The notes: generated from the sequence alone by a model not told the origin. Counted from the stretch's first letter, positions 5,649 through 13,101 are shown. The stretch is DNA of 64,000 nt from Vallitaleaceae bacterium (GCA_963677625.2 CAXXSW010000003.1:25594-89593); one strand, 5' to 3'. Translations and numbers: made by a program.

Positions 5649-7898
5649 CTATTCTTGATGACTTAATTCTTGAGAACTAAGCTCCTTATCTACCAACTCA
5701 ACAAATTCTTCCTTAAGTTCACTATCACTAGTTTCTTCATCAACAAGGGCTTTAACTGCATCAATTTCTGCATGTGGATTCTCACCTTTTGGTACCCGAA
5801 TAACCGCTTTAAACATATCTCCGTCTACTATGATCTCTTGACTACCATCCTGAAGTTTCAACAAACTTTCAACAATAGAAAGACCAAGACCGGACCCCTC
5901 AGTGCTTCTTGCATCATCACCACGTACAAATCTTGCTGCCAGGTTTTCGCCCTTGGCTTCTAAAGGGTGGTTTGAAACATTTTTAAAAATAATCTGTATA
6001 TCTTCTGATAAGCTATCAATTTCAATAAAAACTCTTGTTCCTTTTAAGGTATATTTTAATATATTAGATATAAGATTCTCAAAAACACGATACATATGGT
6101 TTGGATCAACAAGAGCCCAAGCAGCTTCACCTCGTTCAGGTTCAAATACAATCTTAAGATTTTCTTTATAGAAGTACTCTTCCCGATCTGCCAATATCTG
6201 AACCAACATCTGCCGAAGGTTAATATCCATAAGTTCCACATCCAAATTGCCGCTAGATGCCTTTGAAGCAGATACTAAATCCTCGATTAAGGTTTTTAAG
6301 CGATACCCCTTATTACTTAAGATGTTAATATAATTCTCCATATTGTCCTGAATTTCTTGCCTATCTTCTTCTGTTCTTCCAGGCTGTCTATACATAATCA
6401 GTGATTTTTCGAGAAGATCCAAATATGTAATAATTGAGGTTAGTGGATTCTTTAAGTCATGAGAAACATTGGTAATAAGTTCTGTCTTCATTTTCTCACC
6501 TCGAATAGCATCATCTAATGCTAACTGAAGTCCGTTTTGTAATTCATTAAGATCATTGGCAAAAGACTGAAAAGCCGTTTGATATTTACTGGCATCAATA
6601 GGATAAGACGTATCACCATTAGCCCTGTGCCTCGTTGCATCAATAAGGCTGGTTAAATCCTTAATAACTGACAGGACGTACATACCAGTAATAATCTGCA
6701 CAAGGAGAAAACAACCTGTAAGGAAAAGAGTTACCACTATGTTATTAAACCAAACAATAAGACCTAAAGATCCTACATTAAAACCAACATAACCAATAAG
6801 AATAATGAATATTTTGTACTTATTCAACGGGTTATCAAAGTCCATGGTAAAAAGACTTTTTATCAACCACCAAATTTTAAATGTAATAGGATTCTTATAA
6901 ATATATTTAGTCTTAACCAATCTGGCTACCGAAAGGAAGACAGCACCAGATGCAAGAACAAAAGTCCCTGAAGATACAACTAGCTGAAATCTTAAACTAT
7001 TAATATCTGTTGTCTCATAGAGACTGGCCTGATATCTAGCTAATGGAACAATTGAGATAACCAAAATCATAGCCTGAATTTCTAGAGGTATGTAATCGTA
7101 GAAAAAGAGTTTTACCGGTCCTTCATATGACGTCTTCCCAATGACCAAGGATAAATAAATGACAGCAAAAAAAGCCGCAAAGACACTAAACACCAACATA
7201 GGGAACTCATTATTGACCTTTTCCTTATACTGCCTAAAGTCATAATATCCACCACCAAATAGAATATCATCCTCCATTAGACTAAAGTCCACAGCCGTAT
7301 AATAGATCCATCTACCTTCCCTAAGTCTATATACCACATCAGAAGCTGTAACATTAGTTGTCGTATATTGAGAAGTTGTATTGTAATGTCGGTATGCTAA
7401 AGGCTGATCAGCCATAACACTGGAAACAGGAAAATATAGACCTGTAGAGTCCCATTGGATAACGGTTTCAAAAGAGCTAATATATTCTTCAGCATGGTTA
7501 AAGCCCATACTGGTATATTTAATATCAGGTATATTAGTAATCGTTTGGCCTGTTTCCTTGTCCACTAAAAGATAGATAAAAGAAGGACTCCGCCGAAGAT
7601 TATCATTAATAGCACTTAAGCGGCTTAGTGAAATAGCCTTATCATTACCGATTCTAGTATCCTCAATGCTTTTCTCATCGATTAAATCCAATTCCTTCTC
7701 AACAACATTATGACTTAGTCGGACATAATTCTGCTGGAACTCATCCGTTTCATAATAAGAATCCTTGTAGAAATACTCGCTATTATAAGATGACAGATAC
7801 TGGTAATCAATAATTGTCAACATAGCAAAGACTAGCAGGGCAAGGCCTATGAACTTAGTAAAAATATTATACGGAATATTTTTCAATTTTATACCCAA
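5649..7898 (-). CDS. Multi-TM sensor histidine kinase (HisKA + HATPase_c)
   Basis: ITNVSHDLKNPLTSII H-box, ENLISNILKY N-box, GSGLGLSI G2-box; TTG start overlaps the response regulator. Confidence 0.92.
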   Translation of the reverse strand: MGIKLKNIPYNIFTKFIGLALLVFAMLTIIDYQYLSSYNSEYFYKDSYYETDEFQQNYVRLSHNVVEKELDLIDEKSIEDTRIGNDKAISLSRLSAINDNLRRSPSFIYLLVDKETGQTITNIPDIKYTSMGFNHAEEYISSFETVIQWDSTGLYFPVSSVMADQPLAYRHYNTTSQYTTTNVTASDVVYRLREGRWIYYTAVDFSLMEDDILFGGGYYDFRQYKEKVNNEFPMLVFSVFAAFFAVIYLSLVIGKTSYEGPVKLFFYDYIPLEIQAMILVISIVPLARYQASLYETTDINSLRFQLVVSSGTFVLASGAVFLSVARLVKTKYIYKNPITFKIWWLIKSLFTMDFDNPLNKYKIFIILIGYVGFNVGSLGLIVWFNNIVVTLFLTGCFLLVQIITGMYVLSVIKDLTSLIDATRHRANGDTSYPIDASKYQTAFQSFANDLNELQNGLQLALDDAIRGEKMKTELITNVSHDLKNPLTSIITYLDLLEKSLIMYRQPGRTEEDRQEIQDNMENYINILSNKGYRLKTLIEDLVSASKASSGNLDVELMDINLRQMLVQILADREEYFYKENLKIVFEPERGEAAWALVDPNHMYRVFENLISNILKYTLKGTRVFIEIDSLSEDIQIIFKNVSNHPLEAKGENLAARFVRGDDARSTEGSGLGLSIVESLLKLQDGSQEIIVDGDMFKAVIRVPKGENPHAEIDAVKALVDEETSDSELKEEFVELVDKELSSQELSHQE

Positions 7899-8562
7899 TG
7901 CCCCACACCACCTTTAAATATTTAGGTTCCTTAGGATTGATTTCCAGTTTCTCTCGTATTCTTCTAATATGAACGGCAACTGTATTTTCAGCACCAATTG
8001 CATCTTCATTCCATACATTCTCATATATTTCTTGAATTGAAAAAACACGACCTGGGTGTTTAATCAACAAATGAATAATCTTATACTCTGTTGGTGTTAC
8101 ACTAACAAGTTCATCGTCAACTCTAACTTCTTTTGTATCTAAATTCAAGGTTAAACCACCTGATTTTAAGAGATGATCTTCTGAAACCATACTACCCAAA
8201 TTCGTATATCGACGAAGCTGGGACTTAACTCTAGCCATGAGCTCCAAAGGATTAAAGGGCTTAGTCACATAATCATCTGCACCGTAACTAAGACCCATGA
8301 TTTTATCAAAATCTTCTGATTTTGCCGACACCAAAATAATCGGAATATTGAAGTTCTTACGGATTCTGCTAGTCGTTTCAATACCATCTAATTTGGGCAT
8401 CATGATATCCATAAGCAATAAATGAATGTCCTGTTCATTCAGTATCTCCAAAACCTGCTCACCATCATATGCCTTTATGGGATTATAACCTTCCATTTTT
8501 AAATAAGTTGCAATTGCCTCAACAATATCCTTATCATCATCACATACCAAAACATTAAACAT
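7867..8562 (-). CDS. OmpR/PhoB-family response regulator
   Basis: VCDDD, LLMDIMMPKLDG, ADDYVTKPF, winged helix ending KVVWGIGYK. Confidence 0.95.
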   Translation of the reverse strand: MFNVLVCDDDKDIVEAIATYLKMEGYNPIKAYDGEQVLEILNEQDIHLLLMDIMMPKLDGIETTSRIRKNFNIPIILVSAKSEDFDKIMGLSYGADDYVTKPFNPLELMARVKSQLRRYTNLGSMVSEDHLLKSGGLTLNLDTKEVRVDDELVSVTPTEYKIIHLLIKHPGRVFSIQEIYENVWNEDAIGAENTVAVHIRRIREKLEINPKEPKYLKVVWGIGYKIEKYSV

Positions 8563-9658: not shown

Positions 9659-10537
9659 CTATTCTATACCCTTTAAAGTTATAACAACTACTTCCGGTGG
9701 ATTAAATACCCTAGGTAAAAAGAAATTTAAACTCAATCCTCTGCTAACAATCATGTGCATACCATCTTCTTTATATAAACCTCCGGCATATTCAGGAAAG
9801 AAACCTTGATTGGGGGCATATAATCCATTAAGGAGATAGGGTATGCGTACCTGTCCCCCATGGGCATGGCCACATAAGACAAGGTCTAAGTCAAAGGTCT
9901 TATAGGTGTTGATATACTCTGGTCGGTGAGAAAGCAAAAGAGTGAAATGACTTAAATCAAGATCCAATAAACCGGATTCTTTTATCTCCTCATTAACAGG
10001 TAAAACATTATATAGGTCAACCCCATCTCTCTTTGATTCAAGGCTAAAAGATTTTCGTCTGTTACCCGTTCCTGCTGGGTCAAGTATACCACCAATATTA
10101 ATTTTGTTTCCATTTATCTCAATAACTTCAGAATCATTAAAATAACAGGTAACACCAAGGTCTTCTATCCGTTCAAAAACTTTCTCTGTTTCCCTGTGCC
10201 AACCTTCATGATTACCTGAAACATAATAGATAGGATAATCACTTAAGGATTCCATTAACATATAGGCTCCGCTTTCATCAGCGACATCATCAACCATATC
10301 TCCAGTCATAACAATAATATCTGGATTAGCTGCTTTGATTTTTTTAAGCAATCGGCTTTGATCTTTTCCATATATTGACCCATGCAAATCACTAAGGTGT
10401 ACAATTCGAACAGGGTTTTCAATTTTATCTGAAGTTACAGTGTATCGTCGATATACTGGCTGATTCCACAAGGCGATGGTTGCTAGAACAGCCAGAGTCA
10501 CAATTATGTATATCATCTGTCTTTTCCTCTTCTTCAT
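9659..10537 (-). CDS. Calcineurin-like metallophosphoesterase (YkuE/YaeI-like)
   Basis: SDLH, TGDMVD, SGNHE, LLSHRP, GHAHGGQ motifs. Confidence 0.92.
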   Translation of the reverse strand: MKKRKRQMIYIIVTLAVLATIALWNQPVYRRYTVTSDKIENPVRIVHLSDLHGSIYGKDQSRLLKKIKAANPDIIVMTGDMVDDVADESGAYMLMESLSDYPIYYVSGNHEGWHRETEKVFERIEDLGVTCYFNDSEVIEINGNKINIGGILDPAGTGNRRKSFSLESKRDGVDLYNVLPVNEEIKESGLLDLDLSHFTLLLSHRPEYINTYKTFDLDLVLCGHAHGGQVRIPYLLNGLYAPNQGFFPEYAGGLYKEDGMHMIVSRGLSLNFFLPRVFNPPEVVVITLKGIE

Positions 10538-10654
10538 CCATATTTCTCCATTATAGCATATTTACTGTCATTGACCGGTCTTTCTTTCAGTGCTATTATA
10601 ACAGTTATCCAGCTTATGCATATTTACAATTTTATGACAAGGAGGTTGAGCCTT

Positions 10655-11785
10655 ATGCATATTCTCTTTATTGAACCTTTCTACAGCGGTTCTCATAAAG
10701 CTTGGTTAGATCACTTAATTGCACATTCAAGTCATCAGATACATGCCTTGACCATGGATGGCAAATCTTGGAAGTGGCGTATGTATGGTGCTTCCCTTAC
10801 CATGTCTCAGGAACTTATAAAAATACATCAAGAGTTTGATCTTATTATCGTTAATGACATGCTGGATTTCTCCACCTTTATAGCTTTATCAAGAGATCAG
10901 CTTACAAGGCTTGGTAATCCAAAACTTGCTGTCTATTTTCATGAAAATCAATTAGCTTATCCTTGGAGAGAGGCTGGTGATGATATAAGAAAAAATAGAG
11001 ATGTCCATTATGGTATGATGAATTATACTTCTGCTCTTTGTGCTGATTATGTCATATTTAATTCTAAACATAACCGTGACACATTCTTTCTAGAGCTAAA
11101 AAATCTCCTTAATAAAATGCCTGATTATAAACACACAAATTCTCTGGAATCTATTGCTGAAAAAACAAGTATATTACCTATAGGTCTTGAAACACCAAGC
11201 CCCTTGTCAGGCAAAGATTTAAGTGATTTTATGATGAGATATAATATAAAGCCTAATCATTCACCAATCATCCTTTGGAATCACCGCCTTGACCATGACA
11301 AAAATCCACGAGGTTTTTTGGAGATGCTTATAGGAGTCAAGAAAAAAGGTTTTTCTTTTTCACTAGTTTTTCTGGGTCAAATGAACAACCGAAATCTTGA
11401 CCATTATGAACATTTATTTCAAGAACTCCAGGAAGAAACCCTAGCCCTTGGCTATGTCAGCAGACAAGACTATCTAGGTTTTCTAACTATTTCAGATATA
11501 CTTCCTGTTACCTCCTATCACGATTTTTTTGGCATTAGTGTTATGGAGGCCATTGCCTATGGTTGCAAACCATTGCTTCCAAAGAGACTAACCTATCCTG
11601 ATCTATATGATTCCGATAAAAACCCTGAAATCTTTTATGATAATGAAACGGAACTAGAAGAAAAACTACTTAATACCATAAAAGTAACAAGCCCAGAAAA
11701 AAAATATATTCAATTAACAAAACCATATTGGTGGCCAAAAATAATCACCCAATATGACATCTGTTTTAAGTCCATGGGCAAGTGA
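10655..11785 (+). CDS. DUF3524 + GT-B glycosyltransferase, GTDC1/QTMAN (tRNA-queuosine mannosyltransferase)-like
   Basis: EPFYSGSHKAW, WKWRM, YFHENQLAYP, ADYVIFNS, LWNHRLDHDKNP, HDFFGISVMEA; start moved to ATG 10655 (AGGAGG RBS). Confidence 0.85.
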   Translation: MHILFIEPFYSGSHKAWLDHLIAHSSHQIHALTMDGKSWKWRMYGASLTMSQELIKIHQEFDLIIVNDMLDFSTFIALSRDQLTRLGNPKLAVYFHENQLAYPWREAGDDIRKNRDVHYGMMNYTSALCADYVIFNSKHNRDTFFLELKNLLNKMPDYKHTNSLESIAEKTSILPIGLETPSPLSGKDLSDFMMRYNIKPNHSPIILWNHRLDHDKNPRGFLEMLIGVKKKGFSFSLVFLGQMNNRNLDHYEHLFQELQEETLALGYVSRQDYLGFLTISDILPVTSYHDFFGISVMEAIAYGCKPLLPKRLTYPDLYDSDKNPEIFYDNETELEEKLLNTIKVTSPEKKYIQLTKPYWWPKIITQYDICFKSMGK

Positions 11786-11810
11786 TTTAATATTGATTTA
11801 GTTTTCGGTG

Positions 11811-11874
11811 GGAAAGTTTCCTTGTAGGCATCATGTCGGTCTTTTAGATATGATGCTGGAATAAAGAACTTTCC
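11811..11874. repeat. Nested palindromic repeat element, copy 2 (64 bp)
   Basis: GGAAAGTTTCCTTGTAG-GCATCATGTC-GGTCTTTTA-GATATGATGC-TGGAATAAAGAACTTTCC; 57/64 identity with copy 1. Confidence 0.85.
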
Positions 11875-11886
11875 TATAGAATAAGA

Positions 11887-11912
11887 CAAGAGCCACCAAA
11901 TGGTGGCTCTTG
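11887..11912. terminator. Intrinsic terminator between convergent DUF3524 gene and ald
   Basis: Perfect 11-bp stem CAAGAGCCACC/GGTGGCTCTTG, 4-nt loop, minus-strand tail TCTTATTCT. Confidence 0.8.
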
Positions 11913-11985
11913 GAGTTTTAAGGAGTTGATCTAACAGATTGGTGGACAGGCCTAACTGCTAGATGAATTGGGATACTTACTAAAA

Positions 11986-13101
11986 CTAAAGTAATTCTTC
12001 TGGTGATTTATACTCGACACCTAGGTCATCAGCTACATGTTTATATGTACAATATCCTTTGTATGTGTTAAGGCCAAGACGTAAATCCTTGTTTTCAAGC
12101 ATAGCTTCTACAGGACCCTTGTTAGCAATATCAAGAAGATACTTAAGGGTTACACCAGTAAGTGCATATGTTGAAGTCCTTGGAACTGCTCCTGGCATGT
12201 TGGCAACGGAGTAGTGTATAACACCGTGTTTTTCATAACATGGATTATCATGAGTTGTGACACGGTCTATTGTCTCAATGGATCCACCTTGATCTATGGC
12301 AACATCAACAACCACAGCCCCTGGTTTCATTGTTTTAACCATTTCCTCAGTTACAAGATGAGGTGCTTTAGCTCCTGGTATAAGAACTGCACCGATAAGT
12401 AAATCTGCTTTTCTAACAGACTCTGCAATATTAAATTCATTAGAATATAGGGTCTCAACACGACCTTGGAAAATGTCGTCAAGATATCCAAGACGCTTGG
12501 CACTAATGTCAAGCATGGTCACCCTTGCACCAAGTCCAACCGCCATTTTTGCGGCATTGATACCAACAATACCACCACCGATAATAACTACATTAGCAGG
12601 TGGCACACCTGGAACACCACCTAAAAGCACACCCATACCACCATTATATTTTTGAAGTAGGTTTGCTCCAACTTGAGTGGACATCCGTCCGGCCACTTCA
12701 CTCATTGGATGAAGAAGAGGAAGGGAATGATCAGGAAGCTGAACTGTTTCATAAGCGATACCGGTTACTTTTCTCTCCATTAAAGCCTGTGTTAATTCAA
12801 GGTTAGCAGCCAAATGGAGGTAGGTATATAAGGTTTGGCCTTCTTTAAATAAGTCATATTCCTGTGGCAATGGTTCTTTGACCTTAACGATAGTATCAGC
12901 TTTTGAAAAAACATCAAGATTAGATTCAAGAATTATAGCGCCTGCTGCTTGATATTCTTCGTTAGTTATACCGCTGCCAAGGCCCGCATTATCTTCAATA
13001 TACACAGTATGTCCAGCCTTAACTAAAGCGCTTGCACCTGCAGGAGTTAATGCAACACGGTTTTCATTGTTCTTAATCTCTTTTGGTACTCCAATAATCA
13101 T
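11986..13101 (-). CDS. ald: Alanine dehydrogenase
   Basis: [70 protein letters not shown]. Confidence 0.97.

Follow-up and report, generated by a model that had tools for sequence, protein, structure and literature searches.

The 64,000-nt stretch of Vallitaleaceae DNA analysed here (hereafter the window) encodes P0001, a 376-aa glycosyltransferase of the QTMAN/GTDC1 family (10655..11785, + strand), which was delineated by its ORF, its Pfam matches and an alignment of homologues. We tentatively propose, at slightly less than an even chance, that this enzyme hexosylates queuosine-34 (Q34) of tRNA in the host bacterium. Judged from the sequence, glycosylation of Q-tRNA by P0001 is plausible, and we rate it no higher than that. 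The animal member of the family, QTMAN (GTDC1), has been described as a tRNA-queuosine alpha-mannosyltransferase (Zhao et al., Cell 2023, 10.1016/j.cell.2023.10.026; as related in PMC11695743 and PMC11705514). Its product, manQ, occurs on tRNA-Asp in animals and on tRNA-Tyr in mosquitoes (PMC11705514; bioRxiv 10.64898/2026.06.28.735034), and dipteran surveys found QTMAN to be near-universal in Diptera (PMC11705514).

P0001 combines a QTMAN-specific N-terminal domain with a GT1/GT4-type donor domain

An earlier note on this DNA had read the gene as a bacterial homologue of GTDC1/QTMAN on the strength of six motifs. All six are present in P0001 in the order stated, which is far beyond chance: EPFYSGSH (residues 7-14), WKWRM (39-43), YFHENQLAYP (94-103), ADYVIFNSKHN (130-140), WNHRLDHDKNP (208-218), and HDFFGISVMEA (289-299). 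The N-terminal domain, presumed to be the acceptor-binding Rossmann half, spans residues 2-178 (10658..11188, + strand) and belongs to Pfam family PF12038 (QTMAN_N, formerly DUF3524). The match is complete, covering model positions 1-168 of 168 with E = 5.8e-56 and 189.4 bits against a cut-off of 25. The C-terminal GT1/GT4-type nucleotide-sugar (donor) domain occupies residues 199-341 (11249..11677, + strand) and matches PF00534 (Glycos_transf_1) with E = 1.7e-12. As far as the family is concerned, the relationship to GTDC1/QTMAN is secure: the two domains, the fold and the motifs of the donor site are all there.

The family alignment, which includes 52 homologues from at least five phyla, contains 20 invariant positions. 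Twelve of them are N-terminal (S13, H14, W41, R42, Y94, H96, E97, N98, Q99, P103, N136, and P156), while W208, R211, D215, and K216 are invariant in the donor half. We take the R211-x4-K216 spacing to represent the diphosphate-binding R/K pair of GT4 enzymes. D290 and E298 are kept in at least 90% of the 52 homologues and form a D290-x7-E298 variant of EX7E, which presumably corresponds to the EX7E motif of GT4 enzymes. Because the R211/K216 pair and the D290-x7-E298 motif are both kept, the catalytic equipment of P0001 looks intact. The N-terminal half of GT-B enzymes is the acceptor side, and the concentration of invariant residues in that half of P0001 suggests that the acceptor is conserved across the family.

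The AlphaFold model of P0001 (pLDDT 93.9, pTM 0.90) predicts a retaining GT-B fold with two Rossmann halves. The top 50 PDB fold matches of the model are GT-B enzymes, with TM-scores mostly around 0.65-0.73. The best among them are GlgM, MshA, TreT, BshA, and the sucrose-phosphate, trehalose-phosphate and glycogen synthases, at 11-16% identity. We take these enzymes to be of the retaining type, which would fit an alpha-glycoside such as manQ. No QTMAN structure was found in the PDB copy searched, either by sequence or by fold.

P0001 is predicted to be a cytosolic protein that is not notably basic. Its hydrophobicity profile (maximum Kyte-Doolittle 19-residue mean 1.31) reveals no transmembrane segment, and an amphipathic anchor was not detected either. 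With a pI of 6.4 it is slightly acidic; 120 homologues have a median of 6.2. When compared with NCBIfam models, the donor half weakly matches those of the HpsP, TuaC, and IagA/BgsA types, scoring 18-40 bits against cut-offs of 400-550.

The gene stands alone within a run of minus-strand genes

The ORF found in the window extends over 10571-11785 (+ strand) and ends with the stop codon TGA at 11783-11785. We take the ATG at 10655 to be the functional start, because the ribosome-binding site read from the sequence (AAGGAGG, 10640..10646, + strand) ends 8 nt ahead of it and homologues start at the equivalent residue (51 homologues in the alignment). A candidate sigma-70 promoter, recognised by consensus match only, consists of TTGACC, a 17-nt spacer and a TG-extended TATTAT (10571..10599, + strand). 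It matches 10 of 12 consensus positions, has a TG before the -10 hexamer and lies 56 nt upstream of the ATG; its weight is limited by the number of promoter-like sites in the region, which equals the shuffle expectation. Profile searches showed the gene to be single-copy in the 4.33-Mb host genome.

The P0001 gene is the sole + strand gene within a long run of minus-strand genes. According to ORF calls and annotation, a membrane-anchored calcineurin-like metallophosphoesterase (9659-10537, - strand) lies upstream in divergent orientation, and an alanine dehydrogenase (11986-13101, - strand) lies downstream in convergent orientation. A Cu-amine-oxidase-N/cell-wall-hydrolase protein, a two-component pair and a DUF218 protein are encoded farther upstream. 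The alanine dehydrogenase is accompanied by an Lrp/AsnC regulator, with a PfkB kinase and an RND pump farther downstream. The divergent and convergent neighbours bear out the earlier description of the gene as monocistronic, and since no glycan-synthesis genes adjoin it in the window, its placement outside a polysaccharide cluster holds as well.

Between the convergent genes lies a perfect hairpin with an 11-bp stem and a 4-nt loop (11887..11912), scored as a terminator-like site of the minus strand. Its sequence marks it as a clear putative terminator of the minus-strand alanine dehydrogenase gene. On the + strand side, only GAGTTTT, with a short T run, comes next. The hairpin is possibly bidirectional, in which case it would also terminate the glycosyltransferase transcript.

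The closest relative of P0001 (72% identity) is encoded by a Vallitaleaceae MAG in a fully syntenic region, which identifies the host as a clostridium of Vallitaleaceae type. This MAG contains an extra 181-aa ORF (L003:9161-9706, - strand) between the QTMAN homologue and the alanine dehydrogenase gene. Positions 11786-11985 of the window hold no counterpart of it, indicating an insertion or deletion between close relatives.

The host most likely completes queuosine from an imported precursor

The earlier note had proposed that the assignment would fail if the genome lacked tgt or Q salvage. Instead, tgt, queA, a QueG-type reductase and a precursor-uptake module are all present in the host. Profile searches of the host genome identified tgt, with yajC after it, and queA, and found neither queH nor queC. 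The QueG-type reductase has 326 residues. With 155 bits it stays under the equivalog cut-off of TIGR00276 (200), yet both Pfam domains, QueG_DUF1730 and Fer4_16, are present. Weak 'queC' matches in the host genome turned out to be LarE, which is encoded within a larB-larE-larC cluster for nickel-pincer cofactor synthesis (contig C4 of the host genome, L011:194-3053, - strand).

A preQ1-I riboswitch-like aptamer was located on the same contig at about 359790-359835 (L046:3790-3835, - strand). The match covers 45 of 45 positions but is sub-threshold: with 26.3 bits it falls short of the gathering score (39), and its E-value was 0.0015 when 251 nt were searched. Directly downstream of this element lies a gene for a Vut_1/YhhQ transporter (L046:3065-3784, - strand; PF02592, E = 9e-38), and the 3' tail of the element runs into AGGAGG, the would-be ribosome-binding site of the transporter gene. 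We take YhhQ to be a family of queuosine-precursor importers. As tgt, queA, the QueG-type gene and YhhQ are present and queC is absent, the host appears to rely on an external source, and most likely it imports a queuosine precursor and completes Q on tRNA. An ordinary T-box leader is found at the same locus (L046:6529-6737, - strand; 94.2 bits, marginally over the gathering score, 93), ahead of a 696-aa ORF for a putative threonyl-tRNA synthetase.

The host genome encodes GUN-anticodon tRNAs for Asp (3), Asn (4), His (1), and Tyr (2). Judged from gene content alone, a Q34-tRNA acceptor should exist in this bacterium. A crude signature screen of the host genome identified one GluRS-like ORF only and no second, GluQRS-type ORF, so Q34 of the host tRNA-Asp is probably not already glutamylated.

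The transferred sugar may be a hexose other than mannose

A motif screen of all host ORFs revealed sugar nucleotidyltransferases above NCBIfam cut-offs, namely GalU, two GlgC and RmlA. The same screen returned a CDP-glucose-type enzyme, GlmU-like and IspD-like proteins and a nucleotidyltransferase/CobD-like fusion. No GDP-mannose pyrophosphorylase (mannose-1-phosphate guanylyltransferase, ManC) was found among the host ORFs by a regex screen, which could miss an atypical enzyme. This result suggests that GDP-mannose is possibly unavailable in the host. As no GDP-mannose route is evident, the enzyme may transfer glucose or some other hexose in this bacterium, in place of mannose.

The fusion protein has 613 residues (contig C10 of the host genome, 251979-253820, + strand) and joins a sugar/phosphobase nucleotidyltransferase domain to a CobD/HisC-like PLP enzyme, scoring 172 bits on threonine-phosphate decarboxylase, below the cut-off.

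Bacterial members of the family are rare and scattered

An exhaustive search of 1.84 billion representatives yielded 681 clusters at 50% identity (E <= 1e-30), and a word-indexed search yielded 4727 clusters at 90% identity (E <= 1e-5). Named homologues come from Fibrobacterales, Myxococcota, KSB1, Verrucomicrobiota, and Clostridia, and the best-match lists for P0001 are all bacterial. Some bacterial members already carry the name 'tRNA-queuosine alpha-mannosyltransferase domain-containing protein' in NCBI/UniRef, and some homologues are named 'glycosyltransferase involved in cell wall biosynthesis' by JGI. The gene family is not new in this sense, being catalogued in databases by homology. 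In the full texts searched, we found no report of a bacterial QTMAN homologue, of an experiment on a bacterial member or of glycosylated Q in bacteria.

Above the cut-off, the family is carried by 3 of 399 Clostridia and 13 of 301 Verrucomicrobiota; within lineages the gene is rare, occurring in 1-4% of genomes. None of 14 control genomes of model organisms, E. coli included, contains it. In a maximum-likelihood tree, six clostridial sequences require at least three separate placements, on well-supported branches and interleaved with other phyla. Homologues from the same class are 40-45% identical to P0001, no closer than those of Fibrobacterales (47%). Searches of 50,697 phage and 72,556 plasmid records turned up no homologue. 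On these sequence comparisons, the gene is a chromosomal accessory gene whose patchy distribution was probably shaped horizontally. The Vallitaleaceae include cultured Vallitalea strains.

Genomic context across carriers

Among 19 carrier genomes, queA is present in 18 and tgt likewise in 18, and none is without both. The two single misses fall in fragmented draft genomes. In Verrucomicrobiota, queA is found in 295 of 301 genomes (98%) regardless of carrier status. Co-occurrence with tgt/que genes, which had been put forward as a check on the assignment, is therefore observed to the extent that all 19 carriers have tgt and/or queA, but it is uninformative, because queA is near-universal in the sampled phylum and the co-occurrence carries no weight. 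Agreement of this order is what chance would give; it fails to refute the link with the Q pathway and supports nothing.

No neighbour family is common to the 19 loci beyond close relatives, except for one run in three Verrucomicrobia. In two of them (L035 and L036), fabF, a lipoyl-synthase-like radical-SAM gene and a histidine kinase gene directly precede the homologue in the same direction; on the shorter Verrucomicrobiota contig (L032), only the radical-SAM and histidine kinase genes are visible before it. This run looks like a lineage-specific gene order. No que, tgt or GUN-tRNA gene was found as a conserved neighbour in the 19 loci. Adjacent glycosyltransferases, flippases, polymerases and sugar-nucleotide genes were not found in them either, and neither the loci nor the window showed a conserved small partner ORF. 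An acceptor in the cell envelope, which the earlier note had named among the findings that would overturn its proposal, is not indicated by context, as none of the 19 loci contains an envelope glycan cluster.

Two loci have individual neighbours of some interest. In Pelagicoccus, the locus annotation places tyrS about 400 bp upstream of the homologue, with a 76-aa Cys-rich ORF between the two on the same strand (L006:6311-7600 for the tyrosyl-tRNA synthetase and 7711-7941 for the small ORF, + strand). tRNA-Tyr carries Q; this arrangement is a single case and is absent in the other 18 loci. In Acidaminobacter, plsY lies upstream of the homologue, again a single case.

Proposed reaction and the evidence bearing on it

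Family membership, intact donor-site motifs, predicted fold, cytosolic location and the Q-tRNA pathway genes were established directly for P0001. In the proposed reaction, a nucleotide-sugar would dock in the C-terminal Rossmann half, where the R211/K216 pair and the D290-x7-E298 motif would bind it. The N-terminal half, with its invariant SH, W-R and HENQ motifs, would bind queuosine-34 of a GUN-anticodon tRNA, which by analogy with animals would be tRNA-Asp. A hexose would then be moved onto a hydroxyl of the cyclopentene-diol ring to give glycosyl-queuosine. The acceptor itself would be made by salvage, with the YhhQ-type importer behind the preQ1-riboswitch-like element supplying Tgt, QueA, and the QueG-type reductase. 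For P0001, we infer the acceptor, the sugar and the linkage.

Several lines of evidence argue for Q34-tRNA as the acceptor. Conservation is highest in the family-specific domain on the acceptor side, the sole characterised member of the family acts on Q-tRNA, and Q34-tRNA should exist in the host. Also in favour of the reading is the bacterial origin of Q, which animals obtain only by salvage. A stand-alone position with variable neighbours is common for tRNA-modification genes; the isolated gene for a cytosolic protein described here resembles such a gene and is unlike that of an envelope enzyme.

Other observations point away from Q34-tRNA. Glyco-Q is not known to have been reported in bacteria; yet the gene is missing from all 14 of the well-known control genomes. 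Such rarity and phylogenetic scatter are unusual for a core translation function, and with a pI of 6.4 the protein does not look like a strongly basic RNA binder. The nearest solved folds belong mostly to enzymes with small soluble acceptors, and the host has no evident way of making GDP-mannose, which animal QTMAN uses as its donor.

Alternative acceptors

The structural comparison bears most directly on the possibility that P0001 modifies a small soluble cytosolic molecule instead of tRNA, as the structurally closest solved enzymes do. Such an acceptor could be free queuine, queuosine or a precursor of the 7-deazaguanine type; unrelated metabolites, for instance a compatible solute or a low-molecular-weight thiol precursor, are further candidates. 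GlgM, MshA, TreT, BshA, and the sucrose-phosphate/trehalose-phosphate synthases, which provide the fold matches, all use small acceptors. The slight acidity of P0001 would suit this explanation, as would its sporadic, horizontally scattered distribution, which we judge to be more typical of niche metabolism. However, at 11-16% identity these matches reflect the generic GT-B fold only; the sequence match to MshA has an E-value of about 0.1 and involves the donor half only, with no partner gene in the window. The N-terminal domain, moreover, is specific to the QTMAN family, whose one characterised member uses Q-tRNA, and no phosphatase or pathway partner adjoins the gene in the window or the 19 loci. 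On this evidence, we regard a small acceptor as less likely than Q34-tRNA, while giving it more credence than the two further alternatives.

The weak C-terminal matches to HpsP, TuaC, and IagA/BgsA-type models, together with the JGI name found on some homologues, would be expected of an ordinary GT4 envelope enzyme that acts on a polysaccharide, a teichoic acid-type polymer or a glycolipid and merely shares ancestry with QTMAN. Those scores, however, lie far under the NCBIfam cut-offs and concern the generic donor domain only. With no membrane anchor detected in the protein and no adjacent glycosyltransferase, flippase, polymerase or sugar-nucleotide gene in any of the 19 loci, an envelope role is improbable. 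As the acceptor of P0001 is a predicted one, another macromolecule also has to be considered, such as a different RNA or nucleotide position, DNA modified with 7-deazaguanine, or a protein. 7-Deazaguanines also occur in the DNA of some bacteria and phages. Against this, the phage and plasmid records contain no homologue, the host has no queC and so makes no preQ0 of its own, and no dpd-like or restriction-type genes are found in the annotated neighbourhoods. We consider this explanation to have little chance of being correct.

Comparison with known systems

Hexosylation of Q34, the reading we favour, is best viewed beside the animal enzyme. Compared at the domain level, P0001 shares with animal QTMAN both PF12038 and the GT1/GT4 donor-domain architecture; it is also predicted to be a cytosolic protein with a retaining GT-B fold, in a host where Q34-tRNA should be available. 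The two differ in that the bacterial gene is a rare accessory gene, whereas dipteran QTMAN is near-universal (PMC11705514). They differ further in that P0001 is bacterial and is assigned its function by homology, in a host where a route to GDP-mannose is not evident.

GluQRS (YadB) is a bacterial enzyme that glutamylates Q34 of tRNA-Asp. Alongside it, P0001 would be a second sporadic enzyme of this kind, modifying the cyclopentene-diol of Q34 downstream of Tgt, QueA, and QueG. GluQRS, in contrast, is an aminoacyl-tRNA-synthetase paralogue that uses activated glutamate, and its fold and chemistry are unrelated to those of P0001; the crude screen detected no GluQRS-like paralogue in the host genome.

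MshA (3c4q), BshA (5d00), TreT (2x6q), and GlgM (6tvp) resemble P0001 in overall fold, with TM-scores of about 0.7, and the donor half of P0001 has the R-x4-K spacing and an acidic-x7-E motif. The differences lie in the low identity (11-16%) and in the PDB sequence matches, which run via the donor half only with E about 0.1 or weaker, whereas the N-terminal half of P0001 belongs to the separate, QTMAN-specific Pfam family. Membership of the envelope GT4 enzymes is likewise not indicated, given the sub-cut-off NCBIfam scores and the 19 loci without adjoining glycan genes.

Implications for bacterial queuosine modification

Extended to the family as a whole, the proposal is that several hundred bacterial lineages hexosylate their own Q34, in this host probably with a sugar other than mannose as no GDP-mannose route is evident, and that glyco-Q is a bacterial invention, animal QTMAN being derived from a bacterial gene. 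We put this forward as possible, and on balance as somewhat doubtful. E. coli makes Q. New here are a host that appears to salvage rather than synthesise the Q precursor, that has no evident GDP-mannose route, and that belongs to the family Vallitaleaceae. Should the acceptor prove to be different, the case would be a warning against the spread of the homology-based name 'tRNA-queuosine alpha-mannosyltransferase domain-containing protein' in bacterial annotations. If P0001 does glycosylate Q34, the hypermodified nucleosides of bacterial tRNA would gain a new member and glyco-Q would be older than animals, and the bacterial members of the family would offer small, easily expressed enzymes for work on the structure and mechanism of QTMAN.
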